A DNA stretch of 64,000 nt from an uncultured Syntrophaceae bacterium (GTDB lineage: Bacteria; Desulfobacterota; Syntrophia; Syntrophales; UBA2210), in the NCBI GenBank assembly GCA_964610735.1, contig CAZSYH010000005.1:5912-69911 (forward strand), read 5' to 3'. The notes under the pieces are model-generated. The model was given only the letters and a program-made list of their open reading frames with translations. It was not told the origin of the DNA and did not search any database. How positions within the stretch are numbered: the first letter of the stretch is position 1; each line of letters starts with the position of its first letter. A program made the translations under genes and the position numbers. Positions 32,472 through 48,076 of this stretch are shown here, piece by piece.

Positions 32472-32726
32472 TCACCCGTGTCTTAATTTCATTATTATGA
32501 TGTACAGGGTGAAGCCGACTCCTATGCCATTTCCTACTATTACCGGGATCGAGTGTATCAGCAGGCCGTAAACGAACCACAGAAAAAGACCGCTTGCCAG
32601 TATCCCAAATGCACCCAATGACAGGTCGGAAGTCTTTTTGGTGCGATATATTTTGACAACCTGGGGTGTCATGGATACCGAGCATATAAACGCCGCCAGA
32701 AATCCGATTATCTCAGCTATGCTCAT
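32472..32726 (-). CDS. SemiSWEET (PQ-loop) small sugar transporter
   Basis: 84 aa, 3 TM segments, PQ motif (TPQVVKIYRTKKT). Confidence 0.8.
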   Translation of the reverse strand: MSIAEIIGFLAAFICSVSMTPQVVKIYRTKKTSDLSLGAFGILASGLFLWFVYGLLIHSIPVIVGNGIGVGFTLYIIIMKLRHG

Positions 32727-33793
32727 AGATATTCTTTCATGCCTTTTTCTTCGAGGCGTTCCACAACCTTTCGGAGAGCCTGTGAAGCACCCCTTTTACA
32801 TATGAGGAGCGAATCTCCTGTCTCCACTACAATAAGGTCTTTCACGCCGATCAGCGCCACCATTTTTTCAGGGCTGTATATGAGAGAGTTCGAGGTATCA
32901 AAGTTTATAACCTCTCCCTTTGTCGCGTTGCCCATTTCGTCTTTATCCATGACATCCCACAGGGCATCCCAGCTTCCTATATCATTCCATCCGAAATCTC
33001 CCTCTATCATGAATACATCGCCTGTCTTTTCCATTACGCCATAGTCTATGGAGACAGGCTTTATATCTCGATAGGTTTCAGAAAGAATATCTTTTTCATA
33101 TTTTGTGCCGATGGATTTTTCTATCTTCAACAATCCATCGTATAGTTCAGGGATCAGCCTTTTTATCGTGTCTAATATAGCGGATGCCTTCCATATAAAC
33201 ATTCCGCTGTTCCAGAAAAATCTCCCATCTTTTAAAAACGCCTCCGCGGTTGCCGGGTCCGGTTTTTCGCGAAACGACTGTACTTCATATATCCCGGTTT
33301 CTCCTATGGTATCGGCAACCCCGCCCTTTTCCATGTAGCCATACCCTGTCTCAGGCCATTCGGGTTTTATGCCTATGGTGACGAGGCAAGCTCTCCTCTT
33401 CGCCATTTCGCGCGCGATGGCGAGTGAGGCTAGAAAGCTCTTCGTATCCGCGATGAGATGATCGGAGGGAAGCACAAACATAACGGCGTCGGGATTTCTC
33501 TTTCTTATGTGTATCGCGGCAAGGCCGATGCATGGCGCGGTGTTTCTTCCCACCGGTTCGATCAGAATGTTTTCAGCGGGAAGCTGGGGAAGCTGTTCTC
33601 TGATCTCATCGGAATGACTCGCGCCGGTGACAATCAGGATATTGTCTTTTCCCACGAGGGGAGTCACCCTGTCCACCGTGTATTGTATGATGGTCTTCTC
33701 ACCTGTAATGTTCAGCAGGTGCTTCGGCCTCTTTTCTCTGCTCAGGGGCCAGAACCTGGTGCCCTTTCCTCCTGCCATGATTACCGCATACAT
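32723..33793 (-). CDS. manC: mannose-1-phosphate guanylyltransferase
   Basis: [19 protein letters not shown] nucleotidyl-transferase motif. The start is at ATG 33793, after AGGAGGAG. Confidence 0.88.
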   Translation of the reverse strand: MYAVIMAGGKGTRFWPLSREKRPKHLLNITGEKTIIQYTVDRVTPLVGKDNILIVTGASHSDEIREQLPQLPAENILIEPVGRNTAPCIGLAAIHIRKRNPDAVMFVLPSDHLIADTKSFLASLAIAREMAKRRACLVTIGIKPEWPETGYGYMEKGGVADTIGETGIYEVQSFREKPDPATAEAFLKDGRFFWNSGMFIWKASAILDTIKRLIPELYDGLLKIEKSIGTKYEKDILSETYRDIKPVSIDYGVMEKTGDVFMIEGDFGWNDIGSWDALWDVMDKDEMGNATKGEVINFDTSNSLIYSPEKMVALIGVKDLIVVETGDSLLICKRGASQALRKVVERLEEKGMKEYL

Positions 33794-33794
33794 A
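33688..33794. repeat. left copy of an approximately 107-bp direct repeat (manC 5' end)
   Basis: Matches 47971-48076 with 3 substitutions in the well-aligned part. Confidence 0.85.
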
Positions 33795-34052
33795 GTGTAC
33801 TCCTCCTGAAAGATCATCTAAAGTTGAAATCAGCCGACGTATATCCGGAAATTCTGCATGAAGAACCACATACGCACAATGGTTTTAAAATCACTTTACC
33901 CGGCAAGCATATCTGTCATTTTTTGAGATGGCATAGTATTCGTCGCGTGATAAACCTTGGGACCCTTTTATTCTTTTCTATGGTGATATATTAATGATAT
34001 CAGTGTCAAGATTTATTTCAGAGGGTCATTTTATTAAGTGTTCATTTTATTA

Positions 34053-34715: not shown

Positions 34716-35432
34716 ATGGAAACAGAAGAGAAGAAATATCCTGAGGTTCTTCAGAGAGAGACATCCCGTCGTGGATTTCTCAAGGGAGCTGCTGTAGCGG
34801 CGGGAGGCGCCGTTGCGCTGGCAACAATTGGTGTCATAAAACCCGCTGCTGTCAAGGCCGCTAACCCGGCACCGCCTCCCAAGATGATCAAGCATCTGTT
34901 TGTCGAACGTCAGAACTGTACAGGATGCCGGGGATGTGAATTTGCATGTTCCCTGTTCCACGAAGGAGTTGTCAGGCCTGAAGCTGCGAGAGTACATGTC
35001 AACAAGTATAAAGGTATCATCGATATCCCGGTAATTTGCTGGCATTGCGAAGATGCACCCTGTATTGCAGCGTGTCCCGTTGAGCCTACGGCTATCTACA
35101 AGGATGAAAAAACGAACGGCATCCTCTTGAATAAGGATACGTGTCTCGGTGCCAAGTGCAGTAAATGTGTGGAGGCATGCCCGGCACAGTTCCTGAGGTT
35201 GCATCCCGATACAGGACACCCTCTGACATGTGACCTTTGCGGTGGCGACCCGGAATGCGTGAAAGCATGCCTGGCACAATCGGGAAATCCCCAAGGGCCC
35301 TGTATTATGGGAGACAAACTCGGTTTCGGTGTGAACCTGGCATATCGCGATGTAACACCGGAGGAAGCTGCTAAGGACATGACTGTCAACTTCTTCTATC
35401 CAAATGAAACCGGGGAAAGGAGGGCTATATAA
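34716..35432 (+). CDS. Tat-signal 4x[4Fe-4S] ferredoxin subunit (NrfC/DmsB-like)
   Basis: Twin-arginine motif TSRRGFLKG, an h-region and AVKA-A cleavage site, and four Cys cluster motifs (CTGCRGCEFAC, CWHCEDAPCIAACP, CLGAKCSKCVEACP, CDLCGGDPECVKAC). Confidence 0.85.
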   Translation: METEEKKYPEVLQRETSRRGFLKGAAVAAGGAVALATIGVIKPAAVKAANPAPPPKMIKHLFVERQNCTGCRGCEFACSLFHEGVVRPEAARVHVNKYKGIIDIPVICWHCEDAPCIAACPVEPTAIYKDEKTNGILLNKDTCLGAKCSKCVEACPAQFLRLHPDTGHPLTCDLCGGDPECVKACLAQSGNPQGPCIMGDKLGFGVNLAYRDVTPEEAAKDMTVNFFYPNETGERRAI

Positions 35433-37237
35433 TGGCAGCACCACGAGGAGGAAATTTTGGAAAGGTTCTGGAAATCGATTTATCAAAAAAAACCTTTAAA
35501 ACGCGTACCGTGCCGGAGGAGATATATCAGCAATTTCTTGGTGGGGCGGGCATGGGGGATTACTTTCTTCTGCACGAGTATAAAGCCCATCAGGACCCCC
35601 TTGCTGAAAACAGCTTCCTGTATCTCGGGGCGGGCCCACTGGATGGAACGTATTGTCCGTCCACTCGAATGAGCGTCGTCCACATGAGTCCGTACACAAA
35701 AAGGCTCAGTCATGCCGAAGTGGGGGCTCATATAGGCGCCGAGATTAAGTGGGCCGGCTGGGACGGCATCTATATCCTGGGAAAATCGAAAAAGCCGGTA
35801 TGGCTCTATATCCGGAACGACAAAGTGGAGTTCAGAGATGCCAGTAACTTATGGGGCAAGGATACCGCTACAACGGAAGATATGATTGTAGAGGAATTGA
35901 AGGATCCCCGGGTCAGGGTCGCCTGTATCGGTCCCGCTGGTGAGAATGAAGTCCCGTATTCCTGTCTTATAGTAGAGCGTTTCAGGGCTGCCGCCAGGAC
36001 GAGCACCGGCGCGCTCATGGGAAACAAGAAATTAAAGGCTATTGCTATCAAGGGAAGCGGGTATGTTCCCGCAGTTGACAGCGATAAATTCATCAAAGCG
36101 GCCAAGGCAGCGAAGCAGTATGCCGTTGACAATGAAGGCTGGCAAGGCATCAAACGATGGGGCACTGCCGGTCTGCTTGAGCTGAAGAACTGGGGCACGG
36201 GATCACTCGTTACGAAAAATTATCAGACCACCTGGTTCCCGGACATTGAATACATCGGTGCCGAGGAGGCAAACCGTCGTTTCTGGAAAAGGCATGTGGC
36301 CTGTACGCACTGCCCCGTTCACTGTCAGAAACTTGGTGTTATTCGAGGTGGCAAGTACAGTGGCCTCATAGCTGAGGGGCCCGAATATGAAACCGGCGGC
36401 CTTTTGGGCAGCAATCTCGACATTTCTGAGTTTGATGGCATGATGGCCGCGATTGAACTGTGTGATGCCCTTGGCCTCGATGCCATTTCAACCGGCGGAT
36501 GTATCGGTTTTGCCATGGAATGCGTCCAGAAAGGTGTTCTCTCGAAGGCTGATCTTGACGGCATTGATCTCGAATGGGGCAACGCGGATGGGGTTGTCGA
36601 GATGGTGAAAAAGATCGCTTACAAGAACGGGAAAGCGGGAAAGCTGCTCTCTAAAGGCGTTGTTGCCATGTCACAGGAAATAGGCCACGGTTCCGAGAAA
36701 TGGGCCGTTCATACAAAGGGCAAAGAGATGGCTGCTCATGACCCGCGGGGCGATAAACCGAGGGGTGTCAGTTATGCCATGGGCCAGTGCGGCGGTGACC
36801 ATCATGAATCCAACAGCCCCGCTGGCCAGGCCCAGCGATGTATCCACAATTCGCTTGTCTGCTGTTCATTTGTCGGCGGGTACTGGTCAATGGGTATGTT
36901 CACCGATATGCTGAACCCGCTGTGTGGGTGGAGTATATCGGAAGATGATATGATGAAAACAGGCAAACGAATCCGAACTCTGGAGCGTTGCTTTGATGTC
37001 CGTGAGGGTATCAGCCGGAAGGATGATATCCTGCCGTACCGTATGACAAACGAAGCACTGCCGGAGGGACCGAAGAAAGGAGCGATTTTTACCGAGGCCG
37101 ATACAAAGAAGATGCAGGAAGATTATTATGCGTTCTTCGGATGGGATAGCAACGGTGTCCCGACGGAGAAGGCCTTGAATGATCTTGGACTCGCATTTCT
37201 TATTGACGATATCAAAGCGGCTAAGAAAAATTTGTAA
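35432..37237 (+). CDS. aor: tungsten-type aldehyde:ferredoxin oxidoreductase family protein
   Basis: 601 aa with an AFOR_N-type N-terminus (GKVLEIDLS...FLGGAGMG), CxxCxxxC (CTHCPVHC), GPEYET, and pterin-binding motifs (CDALGLDAIS, SLVCCSF). There is no signal peptide. TAATG coupling links it to the upstream Tat ferredoxin. Confidence 0.92.
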   Translation: MAAPRGGNFGKVLEIDLSKKTFKTRTVPEEIYQQFLGGAGMGDYFLLHEYKAHQDPLAENSFLYLGAGPLDGTYCPSTRMSVVHMSPYTKRLSHAEVGAHIGAEIKWAGWDGIYILGKSKKPVWLYIRNDKVEFRDASNLWGKDTATTEDMIVEELKDPRVRVACIGPAGENEVPYSCLIVERFRAAARTSTGALMGNKKLKAIAIKGSGYVPAVDSDKFIKAAKAAKQYAVDNEGWQGIKRWGTAGLLELKNWGTGSLVTKNYQTTWFPDIEYIGAEEANRRFWKRHVACTHCPVHCQKLGVIRGGKYSGLIAEGPEYETGGLLGSNLDISEFDGMMAAIELCDALGLDAISTGGCIGFAMECVQKGVLSKADLDGIDLEWGNADGVVEMVKKIAYKNGKAGKLLSKGVVAMSQEIGHGSEKWAVHTKGKEMAAHDPRGDKPRGVSYAMGQCGGDHHESNSPAGQAQRCIHNSLVCCSFVGGYWSMGMFTDMLNPLCGWSISEDDMMKTGKRIRTLERCFDVREGISRKDDILPYRMTNEALPEGPKKGAIFTEADTKKMQEDYYAFFGWDSNGVPTEKALNDLGLAFLIDDIKAAKKNL

Positions 37238-37523: not shown

Positions 37524-38210
37524 ATGAAACTGTCGCGGCGAGATGTACTTCATATAATCATCAGCGGTGCCATATCGGGAATCGTTTTTATCTTCTTCAA
37601 GGTTTCTGGAGCAAAGGCATTGCCCCGTCCGCCGGGGTCACTCATTGAAAACGAATTTCTGAAGTACTGCACCCGATGCTACAGATGCATAGACGTGTGC
37701 CCTGCCGACGCGCTTAAACCTGCCGGCATTCTTGACGGCATAACCAACCTGGGCACACCGGTTCTCGATTGGAAGAAGTGTATCATGTGTATGGAATGTG
37801 TCAGAATATGTCCCACCGAAGCTATTAAGAAAGTCCCCAAAAAAGAGATTGATATCGGAAACGCGGTGATCGAGCCCGACACATGCCTCTCCTGGCAGAA
37901 AACGAGCAGATGCAAAAATTGTTACAAGGCCTGCAAGTATGATGCTATCAAGCTGGAAAAGGGGCGATTTCCCGTTGTCATAGAGGAAAACTGTACGGGT
38001 TGCGGCGCCTGTGAGCAAAGGTGCCCGACCGACCCTAAGTCTATTGTTGTACATTACGACAAGGTTAAAAGATTTGATCCTTCCGGAAATCGATTTGTTT
38101 TACAACTTGAAGATCGAGTAGGGCCTTATGATTTTCCTCAGTCTGATTTCAAAACATGGTTTGCAGGCAGGATGGAGAAGCTGGCCAGACACTATGGGAT
38201 TATAAAATAA
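37524..38210 (+). CDS. NapG/MauM-like ferredoxin with twin-arginine N-terminus
   Basis: SRRDVL plus a hydrophobic segment, then LPRPPGSLIENEFLKYCTRCYRCIDVCP, which parallels E. coli NapG [28 protein letters not shown] as recalled. Four Fe-S motifs are present. Confidence 0.8.
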   Translation: MKLSRRDVLHIIISGAISGIVFIFFKVSGAKALPRPPGSLIENEFLKYCTRCYRCIDVCPADALKPAGILDGITNLGTPVLDWKKCIMCMECVRICPTEAIKKVPKKEIDIGNAVIEPDTCLSWQKTSRCKNCYKACKYDAIKLEKGRFPVVIEENCTGCGACEQRCPTDPKSIVVHYDKVKRFDPSGNRFVLQLEDRVGPYDFPQSDFKTWFAGRMEKLARHYGIIK

Positions 38211-38269
38211 GGGGCAAGGGAAAGAGTGGCCTTCAATTTTGCATTAAAAGAGATAAGGATCAACCTCTA

Positions 38270-39529
38270 ATGACTGGTTTTGAACATATTCAAAATACAG
38301 GAAGAGATGCTGTACTGGTTGTCGGTGGCGGTGTAGCGGGCATTACGGCTTCTCTGGATCTGGCGGATGCGGGTCAGTCCGTTCATCTGGTAGAAAACGA
38401 CAGTCATCTCGGTGGTCAGGTCTCAAAACTGGATAAACTCTATCCGACCGATCACTGTGCCTTCTGTCCCCTCTGGACAGATGTCAAAAAGTGTATGGAC
38501 CATCCTTTAATTACTGTTCATACGCTCTCTCACATAAAGGAATTGACGCAAGAAAACGGTAGCTATTCAGCCCTCATCCTGAAACATCCTCATTACATAG
38601 ATGACAAGAAATGTATTTTCTGCGGACGATGTGTGGATGAGTGTCCGGACAACGCTATACATTCCGGCTGGGAACATTTATATCCACCCACTTTCGTGAT
38701 TGATGAAGCTTTATGTACACAATGTGGCAACTGCACGAAGGTATGCCCTTCGGGTGCTATTAATATGGAGTTGAAAGAAGAAGAAATAAATCTTCTCGTG
38801 AGGGATGTCATATGGGCAACCGGTTTTAAAGAGGCCGATCTCAGTCACCTCAAGGAATATGGAAGCGGCACCCACCCTGATATTATGACGTCCATGGAAT
38901 TTGAAGAGTGGACCGCAGAAGCAGGAACCAACAGGGGAAATATCATCAAAAGATCGGATGGCGCGGTACCGGCAAACATCGCTTTTATACAGTGCGCCGG
39001 AGCGAGGGACCTCAGGATGATTCCATCCTGCTCTGCCGTATGCTGCATGCATGCCTTCAAACAGGCCGAGTGGGTGAAAAGAAGAAATCAAAGGATCGAT
39101 TGTTATATCTTTTATACCGATTTAAGAACGGTGGGGCGCGATTATTACAGATATTCCCTGAAGAATTTTGAAGGTGCTGATGTCAAACTTGTCAGGGGAC
39201 GACCGGGATTGATCCATCCCATGCCCGGCGGTAATGGGATCGCGGTACAATTTGAAAATACGATAACACAAAAAAGAGAGATCAGAAAATTTGACATTGT
39301 GATCCTGAACGGGAACATTCAGCCTTCCCTTATTCAGCTCTGTCCGGCACAATCTGAAAAGAAAGTGGCTCCTCAGATAGACAAAGAAGGGTTCGTTATT
39401 GAAGAGTCAGGCGAAACATCTGCTTTTGCATGCGGCTTCGGTCTTGAACCGGCAGATGTTGCCGAGTCCGTAATCCAGGCGTCCGCTGCCGCAATGAGAG
39501 TTATGAATAAAGAATCTGACCAACGGTAG
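38270..39529 (+). CDS. HdrA/QmoA-like FAD-dependent oxidoreductase with inserted 2x[4Fe-4S] ferredoxin domain
   Basis: VVGGGVAGITASLDLADAG dinucleotide fold, DHCAFCP motif, and CIFCGRCVDECP plus CTQCGNCTKVCP. The start is set at ATG 38270. Confidence 0.8.
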   Translation: MTGFEHIQNTGRDAVLVVGGGVAGITASLDLADAGQSVHLVENDSHLGGQVSKLDKLYPTDHCAFCPLWTDVKKCMDHPLITVHTLSHIKELTQENGSYSALILKHPHYIDDKKCIFCGRCVDECPDNAIHSGWEHLYPPTFVIDEALCTQCGNCTKVCPSGAINMELKEEEINLLVRDVIWATGFKEADLSHLKEYGSGTHPDIMTSMEFEEWTAEAGTNRGNIIKRSDGAVPANIAFIQCAGARDLRMIPSCSAVCCMHAFKQAEWVKRRNQRIDCYIFYTDLRTVGRDYYRYSLKNFEGADVKLVRGRPGLIHPMPGGNGIAVQFENTITQKREIRKFDIVILNGNIQPSLIQLCPAQSEKKVAPQIDKEGFVIEESGETSAFACGFGLEPADVAESVIQASAAAMRVMNKESDQR

Positions 39530-39537
39530 AGTGAAAC

Positions 39538-41232
39538 ATGGCAAACATATCTGTTTTTTTATGCAAATGTTTAGGAGAAATTGATCACATAATCGATTTT
39601 GGTCTTCTCCGTGAGGAATTATCAAAAAATTCTTCTGTTGCCCTCATATCGACCGTTGATTCCCTCTGTCTCGAAACGGATATAGAGAAAACTATTTCTC
39701 TGATAAAGGAAACTGACGCTGATAAGGTATTAATCGCCGCCTGTTCTATTTTGTCGAGAGGCAATCTTGTCGTTGACTGTCTTATCAGAGCGGGGGTCGA
39801 GAGGCATAAGATCGCTCTGGTGGATATCAGGGAAGGATGCGCCTGGATTCATGGCGACAATCCTGAAGACGCCTCAAAAAAAGCAAAAGACCTCATAAAT
39901 ATGGGGATCGCTGCTCTTCAGCATAAAGAAATGTCCGACGACATGTCCGTCACCGTTAATCCGAGTGCCATGATAATAGGTGCAGGCCCCGCAGGCCTTG
40001 CCGCCGCCATATCCGTAGCAAAAATGGGATATGAGGTTAGTATCCTCGAAAGATCAAAGGACCCCGGAGGGATGCTTCGATTCATCTCCCGATGTTATCC
40101 AGGCAACGACGATGCATCGAACAAACTGGAACCATATATTAAAGAGATTGAGAATAATCCCCTCATTACCTTCTATCCGCAATCAAAAATCGCTTCTATT
40201 GAGGGAAACACCGGTAATTTCACCGTTCACTTTTCATCTCAGGAAAAAGATAGTTCCATCCATTCAGGAGTTATCATCATCGCGACAGGCGCAAAGATAT
40301 TTTTCCCGACCGGTCTTTATGGCTATGGAGAAATCAAGAATGTGATCACACAGATGGAGTTTGAGATACAAATCCTGAATGGATCATTAGAAACAAAAAA
40401 AACCGTATTTATACAATGTGTTGGCGCAAGAGATAGAAAAAGACCGTATTGTTCAACTATTTGTTGTCCAATCAGTCTTAAGAATGCATCGAGGATCGCT
40501 GAAGATGTCCCGGGCGGGTCAGTATTTATTCTCCACCGGGGGATCATGACGCCGGGGAGCACCCCGGAGAAATATTACAGGGATACACTCTCAAGTGGTG
40601 TACAGTTTATTCGTTTTGAAGAGGAACAACCACCTCGGATCATAGGCAGTGACCATGTTGAATTCGTTGAGGTGTATGATGCGATAACCGGGATTACAAG
40701 GAAGATTGAGACTGATCTGGTGGTCTTAAGTACTCCCCTTATCCCAAATAATGACAATGCGCGACTGGCTCAGATGCTGGGTATTGAAGTTGACCGTTAT
40801 GGGTTTTTCTCGGAGGTCTATCCGATGCATCCCCTGGAGACAAAAACGGATGGCATCTTCATCTGCGGCTCGGCGAGATGGCCCGTTTCTTCAGATCATT
40901 CGATAATACAGGGGAAAGCGGCAGCCATGAAGGCGGTCTCGTATTTAAAACAGAGTAAAATTGCCGCATCAACACTCAGCCGGGTCCCCGGTCCGAAAGC
41001 AGGTCATGCCTGTGTTAATGTCGATGCATGCACGGGGTGTGGTAACTGTGTTGCTGTCTGTCCCTTCGACGCCTGTCAGCTTGAAAAGCTTGAGGGCAAG
41101 TACGTAAGTACGGTGAACCTCATGAAATGCAAGACCTGTGGTAACTGCGTTCCATTATGCCCCAACGGGAGCATACAGATTCCCGAACATAACTACCGCA
41201 TGGTGGGGGGAATGATACAGAGGGCATTTTAG
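39538..41232 (+). CDS. HdrA/QmoB-like FAD-dependent oxidoreductase with C-terminal 2x[4Fe-4S] domain
   Basis: IIGAGPAGLAAAISVAKMG fold, CVGARD...YCSTICC HdrA-type motif, and C-terminal CTGCGNCVAVCP and CKTCGNCVPLCP. Confidence 0.8.
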   Translation: MANISVFLCKCLGEIDHIIDFGLLREELSKNSSVALISTVDSLCLETDIEKTISLIKETDADKVLIAACSILSRGNLVVDCLIRAGVERHKIALVDIREGCAWIHGDNPEDASKKAKDLINMGIAALQHKEMSDDMSVTVNPSAMIIGAGPAGLAAAISVAKMGYEVSILERSKDPGGMLRFISRCYPGNDDASNKLEPYIKEIENNPLITFYPQSKIASIEGNTGNFTVHFSSQEKDSSIHSGVIIIATGAKIFFPTGLYGYGEIKNVITQMEFEIQILNGSLETKKTVFIQCVGARDRKRPYCSTICCPISLKNASRIAEDVPGGSVFILHRGIMTPGSTPEKYYRDTLSSGVQFIRFEEEQPPRIIGSDHVEFVEVYDAITGITRKIETDLVVLSTPLIPNNDNARLAQMLGIEVDRYGFFSEVYPMHPLETKTDGIFICGSARWPVSSDHSIIQGKAAAMKAVSYLKQSKIAASTLSRVPGPKAGHACVNVDACTGCGNCVAVCPFDACQLEKLEGKYVSTVNLMKCKTCGNCVPLCPNGSIQIPEHNYRMVGGMIQRAF

Positions 41233-41303: not shown

Positions 41304-41744
41304 ATGCATACGGTTAAAATGAAAAATCCGAAGATCCTGATTTTTGCTTGCAAATGGTGCGGGCTTATCGGAGCGGATGCCGCCGGGAAGAAGAGGATAT
41401 CTCTCCCCTCTCAGTTTCGTGTCATTCCGGTGGAATGCGCATCTCTTGTTGAACCCGATGCCGTCCTGAGAGCGCTGGCCGGGGGGATTGATGGCATAGC
41501 TGTTCTGGGATGTCACATAGGAGGGTGTCGGTATAATAATGCGAATCACACTGCCATCAAGAGAATGGAACTTCTAAAAGATCTGCTGGATACAACCGGC
41601 ATCGGACGCAGCAGGCTTTTGCTCAGTTTTGGGACCGCACATGAAGATTATCAATTTGAAGAGATAATAAAGAGTTTTTTTGACGAGGTATCGTTACTGA
41701 CCCCCCTTGATCCCTGGTTGTCGTCGTTTGGAGTGATAAGCTGA
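41304..41744 (+). CDS. mvhD: MvhD/FlpD-like [2Fe-2S] hydrogenase delta-subunit-family protein
   Basis: ILIFACKWCG...IPVECASLV...GIAVLGCHIGGCRY pattern typical of MvhD. Confidence 0.82.
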   Translation: MHTVKMKNPKILIFACKWCGLIGADAAGKKRISLPSQFRVIPVECASLVEPDAVLRALAGGIDGIAVLGCHIGGCRYNNANHTAIKRMELLKDLLDTTGIGRSRLLLSFGTAHEDYQFEEIIKSFFDEVSLLTPLDPWLSSFGVIS

Positions 41745-41746
41745 TT

Positions 41747-42598
41747 ATGCTCGAGAAAACAAAAAACATAGCAAGACAGATTCTTGAAGAGAAAAAGGCT
41801 GGTGGTATCCTGGGCCTCATGAAAGGGCAATGGAATATCATCCAGCCCCATATTTTTGAAGCACCTGCGGAATTAGACGCCCTTGTTCTTGAACCGAAGT
41901 GGTTGCTGGCAAAGCTCGCTATGGGAATATTACGTTCCTCACCGGAAAATTACAAACTGGCTGTAATCTGCCGTGGATGTGATGAAAGGGCACTGATTGA
42001 ACTGATAAAGAGAAATCAGATAGAGAAGGAAAGCCTCCTTACGATTGGAATTGCCTGCAGTCAGGAACAGGCAGCCCTATGCCTTTGCGACAGGCCGTAC
42101 CCCACGAAACTCGACGCAGGGGAGAAGGTTAAAGGGGTAGATCCTTTCCAGGACGAAAGAGTCCGGGAGTTTTTGATCGGTAATGACAAACAAAGGATGG
42201 AGAGGTGGGCTGATATGCTGAAGAGGTGTATCAAGTGTTACGGCTGCCGCAATTCCTGCCCTATCTGCATCTGTGAACCCTGCAAACTGGAAGACGATGT
42301 CTGGGTGAAAAGGGGTGTTGTGCCGGCGGAAGCAATAACCTTTCATCTTATACGTGCCTTCCACCTGTCGGATACATGTGTGGCCTGTGGGGCCTGTCAG
42401 GAAGCCTGTCCCGTTAATATCCCGCTCCTCTATCTGCAGTTCTCGATGCGCAAAACAATCCAGGAATACTACGGGTACGAGGCGGGACTTGATCTTGAGA
42501 TAAAATCACCAGTTCTTTCCGGTGTTTTCGAAGGACCCGATACGGACAGGGAATATCCTGCATGGGTAAACTCGATGAGGGAACGAGATGGGATCTAA
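41747..42598 (+). CDS. 2x[4Fe-4S] protein (AsrA/HydB/FdhB-like electron-transfer subunit)
   Basis: CIKCYGCRNSCPICIC and CVACGACQEACP motifs. It overlaps the fdhA start by 11 nt. The precise family was not recognised. Confidence 0.6.
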   Translation: MLEKTKNIARQILEEKKAGGILGLMKGQWNIIQPHIFEAPAELDALVLEPKWLLAKLAMGILRSSPENYKLAVICRGCDERALIELIKRNQIEKESLLTIGIACSQEQAALCLCDRPYPTKLDAGEKVKGVDPFQDERVREFLIGNDKQRMERWADMLKRCIKCYGCRNSCPICICEPCKLEDDVWVKRGVVPAEAITFHLIRAFHLSDTCVACGACQEACPVNIPLLYLQFSMRKTIQEYYGYEAGLDLEIKSPVLSGVFEGPDTDREYPAWVNSMRERDGI

Positions 42599-44630
42599 AT
42601 TTGTCAAGACCATTTGTCCTTACTGTGGAACAGGCTGTGGCCTTATAATAAAGATCATAGATGGTGTGGCCGTTGCCACCTATCCCGACAGGGAACACCC
42701 TGTCTCTCGAGGTAGTTTGTGCATAAAGGGATGGTCTGCTCACGAGTTTATCAACCATCCCGACCGCTTGACATCGCCTCTTTTGAGAAAGGGTGACACG
42801 TTTCAGGAAATCCCATGGGATGAAGCCATACCGATGGCGGCCTTGAAATTGCGTGAGACTGCCGCACGATATGGCGGCGATGCCATTGGTGGTCTTTCTT
42901 CCGCCAAGTGTACCAATGAAGAAAATTACCTTTTCCAGAAACTGATACGCATGGCATTTAAAACGAACAACGTGGATCACTGTGCACGTCTGTGCCATGC
43001 CCCGACTACCGTTGCAATGGTACAGGCCCTTGGCAGCGGGGCAATGACGAATTCTATTTCGGATCTGGCCGGAGCTGAGTGTATCATTGCCATCGGTTCC
43101 AACACAGCGGAGAGTCACCCGATCATCATGGGGGGAATTTATAAGGCCACTGACAGGGGTGCGACACTCATCGTTGTCGATCCCCGTGAAACGGCAGTCA
43201 CCCGGAATGCAAAGATTCACCTCCGGATAAATCCGGGAACGGATATACCCCTTTTGTGCGGTATGATGAGACACATTATTGATGAAGGACTGCACAACGA
43301 GGAATTCATCAGGGACCGTATGGAAGGATTTAAAGATCTGAATACATTCCTCCAGTCGTGGCCTGTCAAACGGGCTGCCGACGAATGCGGTATCGATGAA
43401 GAGCTCATCAGAAATGTGGCTACGATTTATGCAAAAGCAAAAGAATCTGCCGTAATCTATTGCATGGGTATCACTCAACATGCCTGTGGAACAGCCAACG
43501 TCCTCGCCATTTGTGACCTTGCCATGTTGTGCGGTCATGTTGGAACAGAACATTCCGGCATATATCCCCTTCGGGGACAGAATAATGTTCAGGGCGCCTG
43601 CGATATGGGTGCCCTGCCCAATGTCTATCCCGGATACCAGAGTGTCAGCGATTCGGCAATTCAGGACAAATTTCAAAAGGCCTGGGGGACTGAACTCTCC
43701 GATAAGCCGGGCCTTACCGTTACGGAAATCATCGGCCTCGCGGGGAAGGATATCCGCGCAGCCTATATCATGGCGGAAAATCCCGCATTGAGTGATCCCG
43801 ATACCAACCATGTTTTGGAGTCACTGAAAGCCTTTGATTTTCTCATCGTTCAGGATATTTTTCTCACCGAGACGGCAAAATTCGCACATCTGATATTTCC
43901 CAGCTCCTGTTTTGCCGAGAAGTCCGGGACGTACACCAATACGGAGAGAAGATTTCAGCTCTTGCGAAAGGCAGTCGATCCGCCGGGAAATGCAAAAGAA
44001 GACTTTGCGATTTTATGCCTTTTGGGAAACGCTTTGGGACTTAATTTTTCTTACATCCATCCTGCAGAAGTAATGGAGGAAATCGCGTCTCTGGCCCCGG
44101 CCTACGGCGGTATCCGCTTTGACAGGTTGGAGCTGGAAGGTCTGCAGTGGCCCTGCCCTGATTCAGAGCATCCAGGCACACGGTATCTTCATAAAGACCG
44201 GTTTACGAGAGGCAAAGGACTTTTCGTCATCCCCGAGTATACTCCACCCAGGGAACTACCCGATGATAAGTATCCTTATTATCTAAGTACGGGAAGAATG
44301 TTTGCTCATTATCATACTGGTACAATGACGCGCCGATCACCCTTTCTCAACAGGGAGGTGGAAAAGGCCTATGCCGAGATCAACCCGGAAAATGCTGCTC
44401 ATCTGAACGTAAAAGACGGGGAGAAAATAAAGCTAACAACCCGCAGGGGGAGTATTATAACAACCGCCCGGATAACGAAACGTGTTGCAAAGGACTGTAT
44501 TTTCGCTCCTTTCCACTTTGCCGAGGCACGGGCCAATATGTTGACCAATCCGGTCCTGGATCCCCATTCCAAGATACCGGAATTCAAGGTATGTGCCGCA
44601 GATGTAAGGAAGGAAACAGAGGATGGCTAA
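42588..44630 (+). CDS. fdhA: formate dehydrogenase catalytic subunit (Mo/W-bisPGD, Cys-type, cytoplasmic)
   Basis: N-terminal [4Fe-4S] CPYCGTGC, active-site HCARLCHAPT (Cys-His at the Sec/Cys position), downstream RGQNNVQGA, and no Tat signal. Confidence 0.88.
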   Translation: MGSKFVKTICPYCGTGCGLIIKIIDGVAVATYPDREHPVSRGSLCIKGWSAHEFINHPDRLTSPLLRKGDTFQEIPWDEAIPMAALKLRETAARYGGDAIGGLSSAKCTNEENYLFQKLIRMAFKTNNVDHCARLCHAPTTVAMVQALGSGAMTNSISDLAGAECIIAIGSNTAESHPIIMGGIYKATDRGATLIVVDPRETAVTRNAKIHLRINPGTDIPLLCGMMRHIIDEGLHNEEFIRDRMEGFKDLNTFLQSWPVKRAADECGIDEELIRNVATIYAKAKESAVIYCMGITQHACGTANVLAICDLAMLCGHVGTEHSGIYPLRGQNNVQGACDMGALPNVYPGYQSVSDSAIQDKFQKAWGTELSDKPGLTVTEIIGLAGKDIRAAYIMAENPALSDPDTNHVLESLKAFDFLIVQDIFLTETAKFAHLIFPSSCFAEKSGTYTNTERRFQLLRKAVDPPGNAKEDFAILCLLGNALGLNFSYIHPAEVMEEIASLAPAYGGIRFDRLELEGLQWPCPDSEHPGTRYLHKDRFTRGKGLFVIPEYTPPRELPDDKYPYYLSTGRMFAHYHTGTMTRRSPFLNREVEKAYAEINPENAAHLNVKDGEKIKLTTRRGSIITTARITKRVAKDCIFAPFHFAEARANMLTNPVLDPHSKIPEFKVCAADVRKETEDG

Positions 44631-45084
44631 CGATAACGACAGGATTGCCGAAGCAAGGAGATTTTCCTGCGCATACAGTTGCGTGGAATGTGGCAGGTGC
44701 GTTGCAGTCTGTCCCATGGCAGAGATGTATACAAATTTTTCTATCGAAATGTCACCACGGGGAGTCATTAAGAAAACTCTGGTCGGGAATGACATCATCA
44801 CGGACGAAAATATATGGTATTGTACCGAATGTAATGCCGGTACCGATATTTGTCCACAGGGGGTTAGCTGTCGCGATCTGATTCGAGGTCTCAGGGAAAT
44901 AGCAATCGAAGAAAACATGGTTGAAAATTTAAAATACTGTACCCGTTGCGGCAAACGGTTTTTATCAATTCCCGCAAAAAACTTTGTTTTTGAAAGGTTG
45001 AGAGAGGAACCTCCTAACGTTTTGAACGTTCTCGAACTTTGCCCCTCATGCAGGAGGGAGATGTACATGTTACGTAACACATAG
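44623..45084 (+). CDS. HdrC-like 2x[4Fe-4S] protein with C-terminal zinc-ribbon-like Cys pairs
   Basis: CVECGRCVAVCP and CTECNAGTDICP, then CTRC...CPSC. It overlaps the fdhA stop. Confidence 0.7.
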   Translation: MANDNDRIAEARRFSCAYSCVECGRCVAVCPMAEMYTNFSIEMSPRGVIKKTLVGNDIITDENIWYCTECNAGTDICPQGVSCRDLIRGLREIAIEENMVENLKYCTRCGKRFLSIPAKNFVFERLREEPPNVLNVLELCPSCRREMYMLRNT

Positions 45085-45092
45085 GCAATGTG

Positions 45093-46400
45093 ATGCAGGA
45101 ACAAACAAACGAACAAAATAACATTATCACCCTTGAGGAACTCAGGCCACGCCCGGAAGAGAAGAAAACCTTCTCCGACCACTTTATGCCGCGACTTCAT
45201 CCCGGCATCCTCTTTGATCCTAAAAAATGTACCGGGTGCGGCACCTGCGAGATGGTTTGTTCCTTAAGAAATGTTTCTAAAATAGCCCCCACTTCTGCAA
45301 GCATAAAAGTGCTCAGAGATGAGAACAGTGTCAAGAATTTTGCGATCTTCTGCCAGCATTGCCGCAAGCCTCTGTGCATAGAAGCCTGCCCCACCAGGGC
45401 GATTGAAAAGGGGGAAGACGGGATTGTCCGTATCGACAAACTGTTCTGTGTAGCATGCGGTCTTTGTACGATGGCCTGCCCGGAAGCCGCACCGCTTCAA
45501 GATCCAATAACGGGAGAGATCAATAAATGCGATCTGTGTGAGGGAGATCCACAGTGTGTCAAATATTGCCCGTCAGGAGCCCTTACTTTTACAAAGGGGA
45601 AAAGGATTCGATGGATAAAAGCCTTGCGATGGTCCGTTCAGACTATTTCATTTCTCCTTCTGGTCGTTGCCCTGATTGGAACATTCTGTTCTCTAAAGGC
45701 GGGCGCGCTTAGTTTATCCTGTCCCGCGGGAGTCCTGCAGAATATTGCGTCATCAGGTACCGTCGTGCTCGTCTGGATTCTGTCGGCTTCCCTGATCCTC
45801 GGGTTGACCATACTTGCGGGAAGATTTTTCTGTGGGTGGATCTGCCCCTTCGGCTTTTTTCTCGATCTTGTCGATAAAATTACGCCAAAGAAGATCGGAT
45901 GGCCGTCATTTCTCAAAAGCAGGATGGCAAAGTACGGAATCCTTGCCGGAGCTGTGGGAGGAAGTTGTGCCCTCGGTTTCCAGGCCTTTTGTCCTGTATG
46001 TCCCATAGGTTCAATTTGCCGTTCCTATGGAGCGGCCGGGACCCTTAATGGTGCGAATATGGGAATAGTGGCTGTACTGGGAGGCCTCGAAGTAACAGAA
46101 CGGCGGGTCTGGTGCCGATACTTCTGCCCGGTAGGGGCACTGCTGGCGCTCTTTGCAAAGATCGGTCTGATAAAAATTGTCATCGGCGCAAATCAGTGCA
46201 AGAAGTTTTCCTGTGTTCAATGTGCGGAAGTATGTCCCATGGGAATTATTGACGCGGATAAGTTGCGAGAAGGCATATCACCGGAGATACCGATGACCGA
46301 ATGTATTACATGTATGAGATGCATTGACCGATGCCCTTACGGCGCGGCAAAGATACGGTTCAGGTGGCAAAAGGCGGTGCCGGAGAATGTTGAATTATGA
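45093..46400 (+). CDS. fusion of a DmsB-type poly-[4Fe-4S] ferredoxin domain to a NapH-like integral-membrane Fe-S protein
   Basis: N-terminus carries CTGCGTCEMVC, CQHCRKPLCIEACP, CVACGLCTMACP and CDLCEGDPQCVKYCP. The membrane part carries GRFFCGWICPFG and WCRYFCPVGAL (NapH hallmarks) plus two C-terminal Fe-S motifs. Confidence 0.8.
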   Translation: MQEQTNEQNNIITLEELRPRPEEKKTFSDHFMPRLHPGILFDPKKCTGCGTCEMVCSLRNVSKIAPTSASIKVLRDENSVKNFAIFCQHCRKPLCIEACPTRAIEKGEDGIVRIDKLFCVACGLCTMACPEAAPLQDPITGEINKCDLCEGDPQCVKYCPSGALTFTKGKRIRWIKALRWSVQTISFLLLVVALIGTFCSLKAGALSLSCPAGVLQNIASSGTVVLVWILSASLILGLTILAGRFFCGWICPFGFFLDLVDKITPKKIGWPSFLKSRMAKYGILAGAVGGSCALGFQAFCPVCPIGSICRSYGAAGTLNGANMGIVAVLGGLEVTERRVWCRYFCPVGALLALFAKIGLIKIVIGANQCKKFSCVQCAEVCPMGIIDADKLREGISPEIPMTECITCMRCIDRCPYGAAKIRFRWQKAVPENVEL

Positions 46401-47707
46401 AGCTATTCGATAATTTCTACAACATGAAGGTTGGGATAGTCGACCTCACTCAATTATCCTCAGAGGTAATTCCTCTGGACGAGCAGATTGTCGCGGAAAA
46501 GATCGGCGGAGCAGCAGTAAATGAAGATCTTTTCAGGCAATATAAAGATGATGCTCCTCTGCTCATTGGTGTTGGTCCACTGACGGGCAGCTTTGCCCCC
46601 GCTTCATGCCTTTCGGTTGCAACCTTTTTATCGCCACGATTCGGAAATCTCTGCCACGTTCCTCTTATGATGCGTACCGGCCCCGAGATGAAGTTCTCGG
46701 GCATTGATTTCCTGGTGATCAAGGGAACTGCTTCCTCACCCAAGATATTGCATATAGATAAGGGAGCCATACAGATCTTATCTGCGGAACAGTTCATTGG
46801 CGTTGATATCCCTGAGGGTTTACAGACACTGAAAAAGGAAAGGATTCATTCCCGGTCAATCCTCCTGACAGGCACCGCCGCTGACCACGGGGTCCCGAGT
46901 GCTTCTGTTTCAACAGGCTTTAACGGCAGTTTGGATAAAGCGGGTCTGGCCTTTCTGATGGCCTCAAAAAATCTCAAAGGGGTCATCTTCAATGGAACTG
47001 GTGGCCTTCCCTTCGCCGAAGATAACCTTGAGGATAATGAAACAATTGAAAGAAAGCTTTTCGCGGATGAAGGACATGAGAATAAAGGCTTTCTTTCTAT
47101 GTTGGATAAGATCGGAATCGAAGAGAATCTGAAGGGGGTCATAAAAAAAGCAAAATGGCGGGACATGGCATGCTATCACTGTCCTTCTCCATGTATGAAT
47201 TCTGTCCAGTTTACATGGCACGATCCCCGGAAGAATTCCAGAGTCGAAGATAATATATTACTTTCAGATCATCTGGGATTTCTCGCGCTGGCAAAGAAAG
47301 GGGGGAAAGATGTGTTTCCACTTTCAGAAAGTTGCCTCCGTTTTGGTCTTGACCCAGTTGCCGTTGCGGAGAAATTGCCGGAGAACGGATCATTACTTGA
47401 ATCTCTGAACGCTATAGAAGAGATCTCCGTTACACCGGAAGAACCGAAGATCAAAAGGGAACACCACCAGATCGGAGAGGTTTCAGCTGAAATGCATAAC
47501 CTTTACGGCGGCGGGTTACCACCAATTTTAGCTGAAGAATTGTGGAAGAAACGGGTCCGGCTTTCTATGATTCTGGGTGTATGCCCAATATTTTTACTTC
47601 GTTTCACACAGATTTCGGAACTTGATCTTCTAAAGTTCCTCACAAGCAATGAACATGATCTGAAGTTTTTAGAAAAAAAAGAAATCCAATCTCTCATTAA
47701 AAAATAA
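46397..47707 (+). CDS. shortened AOR-family paralog (436 aa)
   Basis: AFOR_N-like N-domain (IGGAAVN..., VGPLTG). It retains CxxCxxxC (CYHCPSPC) and both pterin-type motifs (CLRFGLDPVAV, ILGVCPIF) in a compressed C-terminal region. An ATGA overlap links it to the preceding gene. Confidence 0.72.
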   Translation: MKLFDNFYNMKVGIVDLTQLSSEVIPLDEQIVAEKIGGAAVNEDLFRQYKDDAPLLIGVGPLTGSFAPASCLSVATFLSPRFGNLCHVPLMMRTGPEMKFSGIDFLVIKGTASSPKILHIDKGAIQILSAEQFIGVDIPEGLQTLKKERIHSRSILLTGTAADHGVPSASVSTGFNGSLDKAGLAFLMASKNLKGVIFNGTGGLPFAEDNLEDNETIERKLFADEGHENKGFLSMLDKIGIEENLKGVIKKAKWRDMACYHCPSPCMNSVQFTWHDPRKNSRVEDNILLSDHLGFLALAKKGGKDVFPLSESCLRFGLDPVAVAEKLPENGSLLESLNAIEEISVTPEEPKIKREHHQIGEVSAEMHNLYGGGLPPILAEELWKKRVRLSMILGVCPIFLLRFTQISELDLLKFLTSNEHDLKFLEKKEIQSLIKK

Positions 47708-47854: not shown

Positions 47855-47970
47855 ATGAAAGGAAATACGGGAAAGATTATTAATGTCGATCTTACCGTCG
47901 GCACGGTTAAGGTAGAGGAGCTTCCGGAGGAGCATTACCGGAAGTATATCGGCGGGAGCGGTCTGGCTAC
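47855..47970 (+). pseudogene. 5' stub (about 39 codons) of a further AOR-family gene
   Basis: [38 protein letters not shown] is a typical AOR N-terminus with an AGGAGG RBS. The reading frame then runs into antisense manC-derived sequence. Confidence 0.7.
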
Positions 47971-48076
47971 GATGATCCTCTCACCTGTAATGTTCAGCAG
48001 GTGCTTCGGTCTCTTTTCTCTGCTCAGGGGCCAGAACCTGGTACCCTTTCCTCCCGCCATGATTACCGCATACATA
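47971..48076 (-). pseudogene. stub of a manC homologue (first 33 codons or so), right copy of the 107-bp direct repeat
   Basis: Encodes [32 protein letters not shown] and then diverges. It differs from 33688-33794 only by synonymous substitutions in the aligned codons. Confidence 0.8.

Follow-up and report, generated by a model that had tools for sequence, protein, structure and literature searches.

A shortened member of the aldehyde:ferredoxin oxidoreductase family, paired with a ferredoxin-NapH fusion in a Syntrophaceae operon, is probably a pterin-free iron-sulfur accessory subunit

What remains of an aldehyde:ferredoxin oxidoreductase (AOR) when more than a quarter of its length is gone, and what could the remnant be doing next to a membrane-bound ferredoxin? 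The question is raised by a 64,000-nucleotide stretch of DNA from an uncultured Syntrophaceae bacterium (contig CAZSYH010000005.1; hereafter the window, in which all coordinates below are counted unless another locus is named), where the gene for a fusion of a ferredoxin with a NapH-like membrane protein (Fd::NapH) is followed directly by the gene for a short AOR-like protein, here called mini-AOR. A preliminary description, made from the sequence alone, had taken mini-AOR for an AOR with preserved cofactor ligands, either a minimal catalytic unit or a redox or cofactor-handling module. That account stands in part: the genes, their domains and the reduced length are borne out, and the pterin-binding signatures are not. 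In our reading, mini-AOR is probably a non-catalytic Fe-S accessory subunit, free of pterin and docked on the ferredoxin domain of the fusion.

Both genes lie where they had been placed and comprise 436 codons each:

45090..46400, plus strand, open reading frame (ORF) of the Fd::NapH fusion, 436 aa, with a GTG start and an ATG at 45093
46397..47707, plus strand, ORF of mini-AOR, 436 aa, with the AOR fold and without tungstopterin-binding residues
46397..46400, plus strand, ATGA start/stop overlap read from the sequence (ATG at 46397-46399 over TGA at 46398-46400)

Direct reading of the sequence confirms the ATGA arrangement, which is best understood as translational coupling of the fusion and mini-AOR. 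The same 4-nt overlap appears in the gene calls of related loci (L001-L003, L091, L092, L094 and L095) and survives where gene order has changed (L091 and L092). Among the 36 loci with a full-length Fd::NapH fusion and room downstream, a short AOR-like ORF stands immediately 3' of the fusion in 33; the pair is intact in L091 and L092, where the FdhA gene has moved behind it, and in Desulfovibrio-type loci, where a short AOR of 356 aa keeps CxxCxxxC and GVCP and is still paired. The fusion and the short AOR are a conserved unit. In one metagenome-assembled genome (MAG), the short AOR is apparently frameshifted (L099, 3461-4724).

The shortness of mini-AOR is genuine. It is 165 aa shorter than the neighbouring AOR (601 aa), and a search of 5.8 billion proteins recovered more than 300 homologs, the full-length ones measuring 408-465 aa at 40-100% identity; the first nine residues are conserved, as is the C-terminus, and the genes 3' of mini-AOR vary between genomes. 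Homologs of matching length and unrelated downstream genes mean that there is no frameshift and no hidden C-terminus, and the sequencing error that the preliminary description had considered can be set aside together with a pseudogene origin, both of which are excluded. The ratio of nonsynonymous to synonymous substitution rates (dN/dS, or omega), 0.21-0.26 against three orthologs, indicates relaxed but purifying selection. An AOR-like fragment at 47855, inspected as a possible part of a longer ORF, is merely a 38-aa N-terminal remnant of another gene.

Several comparisons place the short protein within the AOR family. The AFOR_N domain is matched in mini-AOR and in 57 of 57 aligned relatives; AFOR_C gives no match in mini-AOR at E<0.01 and sub-threshold matches in 34 of the 57 (best 5.7e-4). 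An AlphaFold2 (AF2) model built on 57 sequences, with a predicted local distance difference test score (pLDDT) of 88 and a predicted template modelling score (pTM) of 0.91, found nine significant chains in a Foldseek search of the PDB, all of the AOR family, at E 1e-22 to 2e-18 and a template modelling score (TMq) of 0.59-0.79 (1aor, 8c0z, 9mqx, 9g7j, 4z3w and 1b25), with the next match at E 0.07. The model points to the overall three-domain AOR fold. Profile alignment to the AOR family of the same operon matches mini-AOR residues 8-347 with AOR residues 8-399 with about 52 aa absent in domain 2 and about 113 aa in the other parts of the protein. The pairwise BLASTP value against the operon AOR is E 1e-18; given that value, the negative result of a tblastn search of the window, in which mini-AOR matched itself alone, was not used.

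The residues that decide what such a fold could bind are located as follows:

46427..46999, plus strand, AFOR_N domain, aa 11-201 (PF02730, E 9.8e-33), with the substitutions L72, H87-x-P89, G177 and D180
47171..47194, plus strand, C259-x2-C262-x3-C266, three putative [4Fe-4S] ligands, invariant in 116 homologs and aligned with C288/C291/C295 of 1AOR
47333..47353, plus strand, C313-L-R-F-G-L-D319, what is left of the first DxxGLD pterin motif, Leu314 taking the place of Asp
47576..47587, plus strand, G394-V-C396-P397, in which G, C and P do not vary and C396 is presumably the fourth ligand of the cluster

Thus the AFOR_N domain and the CxxCxxxC motif reported earlier are both present. C259, C262, C266 and C396 are all invariant in the 116 homologs, and mini-AOR appears to retain the four cysteine ligands of the [4Fe-4S] cluster known as FS0, which is presumably occupied. 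The equivalence of C396 with Cys494 of 1AOR is suggested by the conserved G-x-C-P and the spacing of the motif. An hhalign comparison of the last 90 aa with AOR domain 3 was not significant (probability 0.15%), and because this segment has no significant domain 3 match, the assignments of C396 and M391 are tentative.

The pterin site has fared differently. In AorB, the AOR of Aromatoleum, the pterin is hydrogen-bonded by Arg75, Gly94, Arg181, Asp361 and Asp504, which are common to Pyrococcus AOR, and the Mg-linking contacts are made by the backbone of Asn92 and Ala182 (PMC10413684). At the contact positions tested (Arg75/76, Asn92/93, Gly94/95, Arg181/182, Asp361/338 and Asp504/489), mini-AOR carries L72, P89, M91, G177, L314 and, tentatively, M391, with S178 at the position of Ala182. 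The replacements Arg to Leu72, Arg to Gly177, Asp to Leu314 and Asn to Pro89 stand out, and the substitutions at the pterin contacts hold across the mini-AOR family, L72 being nearly invariant and P89 invariant. G-L-D and G-x-C-P alone are left as tails of the pterin motifs; the Asp of the second DxxGLD motif has apparently become Met391, in an alignment without statistical support. In the neighbouring AOR, the segment that aligns with the catalytic Glu/Tyr region of solved AORs is EGPEYE; its counterpart in mini-AOR is unconserved, and the C-terminal half, which includes the catalytic His region in AORs, could not be aligned to AOR. Taken at the level of sequence, mini-AOR has lost the N-domain and first-motif pterin contacts. 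What had been described as both pterin-binding signatures in compressed form therefore comes down to their tails, with the phosphate-contact residues replaced, and with the published pterin and Mg contacts substituted family-wide, neither "preserved cofactor ligands" nor a "minimal catalytic unit" can be maintained. Loss of the pterin and tungsten ligands had been named in advance as the sign of a degenerate pseudo-enzyme; on this point the enzyme reading fails, whereas the ligands of the Fe-S cluster are kept.

The partner of mini-AOR combines three modules, namely a four-cluster ferredoxin of the WorS/AorA type, a NapH-like membrane domain and a C-terminal two-cluster ferredoxin:

45189..45614, plus strand, WorS-like domain, aa 34-175, with 16 Cys in four motifs, assigned from PDB matches and similarity to the Tat ferredoxin of the same operon
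45615..46139, plus strand, NapH-like membrane domain, aa 176-350, with four predicted helices (hydropathy, Cys conservation and AF2)
46176..46349, plus strand, C-terminal 2x[4Fe-4S] domain, aa 363-420, with Fer4_7 at aa 374-419 and eight invariant Cys

The Pfam matches of the fusion are Fer4_11, two copies of Fer4_5 and Fer4_7, and the NCBIfam models NapH and DmsB both match it; of its 34 Cys, 33 do not vary across 21 orthologs, including all 16 in the four motifs of the WorS-like domain. Its N-terminus is hydrophilic and has no signal peptide. Residues 34-160 are 36% identical (E 1e-18) to the ferredoxin encoded at 34716, which carries a signal for twin-arginine translocation (Tat), and share its four Cys motifs, so that the N-domain is indeed a signal-less paralog of that protein, as first described. 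Among all PDB sequences, the best matches of this domain are AorA (8c0z_C, 5.7e-27) and WorS (9mqx_E, 9e-24), followed by WOR5-S (5e-19) and BamC (2e-10). Because AOR small subunits are the best PDB matches, the domain is more precisely WorS-type than generically DmsB-type. The C-terminal 240 aa match NapH (NF007013, E 4e-30; TIGR02163, E 5e-29) without reaching the curated cut-offs (101.7 bits against 213 for TIGR02163; 104.8 against 234 for NF007013). The architecture is that of NapH, with four helices, two CX3CP motifs (C248/C252 and C342/C346) and a two-cluster C-terminus; the AF2 helices lie at 174-197, 223-242, 278-294 and 314-334, in a low-confidence model (pLDDT 61). Five further invariant cysteines of the fusion, C200, C211, C301, C304 and C310 (45687-46019), occupy helix ends or loops predicted to face the periplasm and may form an additional metal site for transmembrane electron transfer.

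Taken together, these features suggest that mini-AOR is a degenerate large subunit of an AOR or tungsten oxidoreductase (WOR), which would have given up its tungsten cofactor together with large parts of domains 2 and 3 while keeping the fold and its [4Fe-4S] cluster, FS0. Such a protein would no longer bind tungsten-bis-pyranopterin and would not oxidize aldehydes. The ATGA overlap would fix its ratio to the fusion, and it would dock on the cytoplasmic WorS-type domain as a canonical AOR large subunit does on its small subunit, which would bring its cluster beside the end of the four-cluster wire; what suggests the docking is that the two genes are adjacent, overlap by 4 nt and occur together in 33 of 36 loci. 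In this way a WorL-WorS pair would have been turned into wiring, the small subunit becoming the cytoplasmic arm of the NapH-like anchor and the large subunit an accessory Fe-S cap or side branch on the cytoplasmic face of a membrane redox complex. Of the functions proposed for mini-AOR in the preliminary description, that of a redox module fits the retained Fe-S ligands and the lost pterin contacts; its recognition of two units and of a genuinely short protein holds as well, and its suggestion of an enzyme with cofactor ligands does not. Cluster occupancy, like the docking and the direction and purpose of electron flow, is inferred.

An accessory character is further indicated by rates of evolution and patterns of loss. 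Mini-AOR is the most divergent subunit in 13 of 13 ortholog comparisons (for example, 55% identity against 81-89% for other subunits, or 37% against 49-72%), and at 0.21-0.26 its omega is roughly threefold the value for the fusion (0.08). The short AOR is missing in L117, L118 and L127, where the fusion keeps all its conserved Cys, and some distant relatives lack the cluster cysteines; top divergence, three losses with intact fusions and these cysteine-less relatives were all counted in favour of an accessory part.

Three observations weigh against this interpretation. S70, H87, P89, D180 and D291/H292 are very strongly conserved in the short family, and the conserved N-domain loops that would have faced the pterin could represent a new ligand site instead of a filled-in pocket. 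The equivalences of C396 with the fourth ligand and of M391 with the second-motif Asp derive solely from motif spacing. Lastly, the loss of the short AOR in three lineages speaks against an indispensable relay role.

Beyond the pair, mini-AOR is the last gene of an eleven-gene operon, in which a Tat ferredoxin, an AOR (about 600 aa), a NapG-like ferredoxin, two HdrA-like proteins, MvhD/FlpD, a 283-aa Fe-S protein, an FdhA-like protein and an HdrC-like protein are encoded, in this order, ahead of the fusion and the short AOR:

34716..35432, plus strand, Tat-signal WorS-type ferredoxin, first operon gene (TIGR01409, 23.7 bits against a cut-off of 16.7)
35432..37237, plus strand, full-length AOR, 601 aa (9mqx_D, 351 bits; 1aor, 347 bits)
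37524..38210, plus strand, NapG-like ferredoxin (NF007012, E 1e-25, below the curated cut-off) with an SRRD N-terminus
38156..39529, plus strand, first HdrA-like flavoprotein, whose true start is probably later
39538..41232, plus strand, second HdrA-like flavoprotein
41304..41744, plus strand, MvhD/FlpD
41747..42598, plus strand, FdhB-like Fe-S protein, 283 aa, matching the Fe-S part of F420-dependent FdhB (7bkb_E, 2.6e-33)
42588..44630, plus strand, FdhA-like formate dehydrogenase (9t1s_L, 730 bits; 7bkb_D, 647 bits)
44623..45084, plus strand, HdrC-like protein (HdrC families)

Gene order is the same in all species-level loci with enough flank, about 16 distinct loci, and the operon is kept at identities down to 30%. 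The carriers belong to Syntrophales/Syntrophaceae and Desulfobacteraceae and are nearly all MAGs; the cultured Desulforapulum (Desulfobacterium) autotrophicum HRM2 has the full operon, with a 455-aa short AOR, encoded at about 1,647,757-1,649,124 of CP001087.1, that is 34% identical to the one in the window. In the HRM2 genome paper, hdrA/mvhD/fdhB/fdhA loci are depicted, among them one labelled "ferredoxin, Fe/S cluster protein, Aor5" that may be this operon; the short AOR and the fusion are not discussed there. The Tat ferredoxin is conserved 5' of the AOR in L085, L086 and L094, the SRRD twin-arginine N-terminus of the NapG-like protein is strictly conserved in 14 orthologs, and the HdrC-like gene lies directly 5' of the pair in every locus. 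The FdhA-like protein is closely related to FdhA of archaea. No CCG/HdrB protein is encoded in the operon loci examined, and no nap reductase genes (NapAB/NapC) occur in any locus examined, although the NapG-like gene is present. The earlier proposal of two ferredoxin-AOR units, one with a Tat-signal ferredoxin and the other tethered to the cytoplasmic side of the NapH-like protein, is supported by this organization. On the periplasmic side, the complex would include the Tat ferredoxin, the genuine AOR and the NapG-like protein; the NapH-like anchor would span the membrane, and the split HdrA, MvhD, the FdhB-like protein, FdhA and the HdrC-like protein would lie on the cytoplasmic side.

Some features of the operon and its surroundings may be recorded separately. 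The first HdrA-like ORF (38156-39529) overlaps the 3' end of the NapG-like gene by 55 nt, and ortholog gene calls suggest a later start. The 283-aa protein covers the C-terminal Fe-S part alone (residues 250-382 of 7bkb_E), and the flavin/F420 part seems absent. At the active-site position, the FdhA-like protein of the window has Cys (..HCARLCHAP..), and in some orthologs the gene is split by an in-frame TGA (L003, 5977-8064; L117 and L118), as expected for selenocysteine. Genes for pterin-cofactor biosynthesis (ThiF/MoeB-like, MoeA, MobB and DUF364) adjoin the operon in several genomes, not in the window (L085, 1053-5350; L091, 8197-9177; L092, 12415-13314; L095, 6617-12454). The whole operon is bracketed by a 109-nt direct repeat (94% identical; 33686-33794 and 47968-48076), both copies of which correspond to the 5' end of a mannose-1-phosphate guanylyltransferase gene (the intact gene lies on the minus strand at 32723..33817). 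Attached to the downstream copy is an N-terminal fragment, 38 aa long, from another AOR gene (47855-47967), and repeat and fragment look like a recombination or insertion scar.

Short AORs extend well beyond this operon. An exhaustive profile search of 1.84 billion representatives returned 102 clusters at E<=1e-30, in which nearly all full-length members of about 380-500 aa have Leu or Ala at position 72, and most also have H-x-P at 87-89, Asp180 and a C-terminal G-x-C-P; members of at least 580 aa in the same list mostly have a basic residue (Arg or Lys) at 72 and at 181, and Gly at 180, like solved AORs. The short signature (L/A72, HxP, D180, GxCP) marks about 100 clusters in bacteria and archaea, and a few short members are without cluster cysteines. 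Every distant short AOR examined follows a small ferredoxin gene, in unrelated contexts: with genes for a heme-motif (CxxCH) membrane protein, a Rieske protein and cytochrome b (L087), with genes for a flavin adenine dinucleotide (FAD) oxidase, a CCG protein and an electron-transfer flavoprotein (ETF) (L093), or alone with its ferredoxin in an archaeal MAG (L089). None of these three loci encodes a pterin enzyme, and a locus search with a single distant short AOR gave two archaeal loci. The 419-aa relative in L093 (8001-9260) has lost three of four cluster Cys and yet is still 3' of a small ferredoxin.

In Pfam and NCBIfam, scans with mini-AOR found no model specific to the short form. The tree behind a 2026 classification of tungsten oxidoreductases (PMC13328260) was made from proteins that have both AOR InterPro domains, and because both were required, short AORs were left out. 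Within the limited literature searched, no publication describing a short AOR was found, in line with the preliminary description; the gene has nevertheless been public since the HRM2 genome appeared in 2009, where its NCBI name is "AOR N-terminal domain-containing protein". Short AORs are visible in databases under generic names and amount to a variation within a known family, not a new kind of system.

The alternative that survives best, which we consider unlikely, assigns mini-AOR an obligate function as a relay in the place of HdrB, taking electrons from the HdrC-like protein onto its own cluster and sending them on through the WorS-like wire and the NapH-like anchor to menaquinone; the operon would then be a quinone-coupled Hdr-type bifurcating or confurcating system for formate and aldehyde. 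What recommends the idea is the likeness of the operon to an Fdh-MvhD-HdrA-HdrC bifurcating module that lacks HdrB: FdhA, the FdhB-like protein, MvhD, the split HdrA and the HdrC-like protein recall the archaeal Fdh-Hdr assembly (7bkb), the operon loci lack a CCG/HdrB protein, the HdrC-like gene invariably precedes the pair, and short AORs elsewhere sit amid CCG, ETF or Rieske/cytochrome b genes. However, three lineages keep the HdrC-like gene and an intact fusion without a short AOR, and the fastest-evolving subunit would be an unusual choice for the sole link in a chain.

Distinctly improbable, in our view, is a new chemistry, in which an enzyme or sensor would use the [4Fe-4S] cluster with conserved Asp and His, or a cofactor other than tungsten-bis-pterin, in a remodelled pocket. 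What speaks for a catalytic or ligand-binding role is the high conservation of several former cofactor-facing loops: S70, P89, D180 and D291 are invariant, H87 and H292 nearly so, and in true AORs the N-domain loops corresponding to S70, H87, P89 and D180 face the cofactor; the family is also old and widespread in bacteria and archaea. Members without cluster cysteines nonetheless persist, divergence is high and loss occasional, and among contexts that differ widely there are no consistently linked candidate substrate genes.

A helper in maturation or export, acting on the genuine AOR as a placeholder or chaperone during insertion of its cofactor or during its Tat export, would explain why mini-AOR shares an operon with two pterin enzymes and has ThiF/MoeB-like, MoeA and MobB genes near it in L085, L091, L092 and L095. 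We regard it as very unlikely because pairs of short AOR and ferredoxin occur far from any pterin enzyme (L093, L089 and L087); moreover, the mini-AOR gene is coupled to that of the membrane ferredoxin and not to that of the AOR, the contacts to the pterin phosphates have disappeared, and L127 has a NapG-like gene (judged from a 53-aa C-terminal fragment) without a short AOR. A minimal catalytic tungstopterin AOR, the leading idea at the outset, or a frameshift artefact is largely refuted and deserves next to no credence, as the AFOR_N domain, CxxCxxxC and GLD/GxCP remnants are outweighed by the family-wide replacement or deletion of the Arg/Arg/Asp contacts and catalytic residues, and an artefact by a length that is constant in more than 300 homologs with unrelated downstream genes and by a dN/dS well below 1.

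The reading of mini-AOR as an accessory Fe-S subunit has a parallel in complex I, whose NuoG/Nqo3 contains a molybdopterin-fold domain without metal-pterin, kept as an Fe-S-bearing structural part of a membrane complex; its fold is of the dimethyl sulfoxide (DMSO) reductase type and unrelated to the AOR type. Counterparts of the gene pair are the WorL-WorS and AorB-AorA pairs (8C0Z, 9MQX, 6X6U; BamBC 4Z3W), which share the ferredoxin gene directly 5', a large subunit of AOR fold with CxxCxxxC and a distal Cys, and a four-cluster small subunit. In the window, by contrast, the large subunit has 165 aa fewer and is without the pterin-binding and catalytic residues, the small subunit forms one polypeptide with a membrane protein, and no aldehyde chemistry is expected. 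The NapGH quinol dehydrogenase module is matched in the four-helix NapH-like domain, the two CX3CP motifs, the two-cluster C-terminus and a Tat-type NapG-like protein in the operon, whereas scores in the window fall under the curated NapH and NapG cut-offs, napA, napB and napC are missing, and an N-terminal four-cluster domain and a mini-AOR partner are added. The archaeal FdhAB-MvhD-HdrABC complex (7BKB) and QmoABC correspond to the matches with FdhA, the Fe-S part of FdhB, MvhD, HdrA and HdrC, QmoC being a weak match to the HdrC-like protein; the operon differs from both in lacking HdrB/CCG and cytochrome b and in having WorS::NapH with mini-AOR as its membrane link. The first pair of the operon resembles "Class V" WORs such as YdhV/YdhX of E. 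coli in its Tat-signal small subunit and membrane partners; the 2026 classification, from which short forms are excluded by the domain requirement, confines Tat-type ("Class V") WORs to the YdhV clade 41 (PMC13328260). Pyrococcus AOR and AmWOR1-L, and not YdhV, are the nearest relatives of the full-length AOR in the window. IfoAB/Hdr-Ifo, considered as an AOR-like match, was rejected, as the papers show Ifo to be a Flox-Hdr cassette (DVU2399-2404) and a different system.

These results bear first on annotation. Pipelines name short AORs "aldehyde:ferredoxin oxidoreductase", and metabolic reconstructions of syntrophs and sulfate reducers would count a capacity for aldehyde oxidation or acid reduction that these proteins almost certainly lack; they also sit outside current tungsten-enzyme classifications, which require both AOR domains. 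Short AORs appear to show clearly how the fold of a metal-pterin enzyme can be put to new use as an Fe-S subunit. The more promising object is, however, the surrounding operon, which brings together an AOR exported by Tat, a NapGH-like module and an Hdr/Fdh module lacking HdrB, and is a candidate energy-coupling complex in Syntrophales and Desulfobacteraceae, testable because it is present in the cultured D. autotrophicum HRM2. As a speculative and rather doubtful extension, the operon may encode a membrane complex in which a flavin-based bifurcating module of the Hdr type, composed of FdhA, the FdhB-like protein, MvhD, the split HdrA and the HdrC-like protein and devoid of HdrB, is wired to the quinone pool via a pterin-less AOR and WorS::NapH, and to a periplasmic tungsten AOR via NapG. 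If so, formate/CO2, aldehyde/acid and menaquinone redox chemistry would be coupled across the membrane, and dyads of short AOR and ferredoxin would be a general adaptor for Hdr-, ETF- and bc-type complexes in bacteria and archaea.

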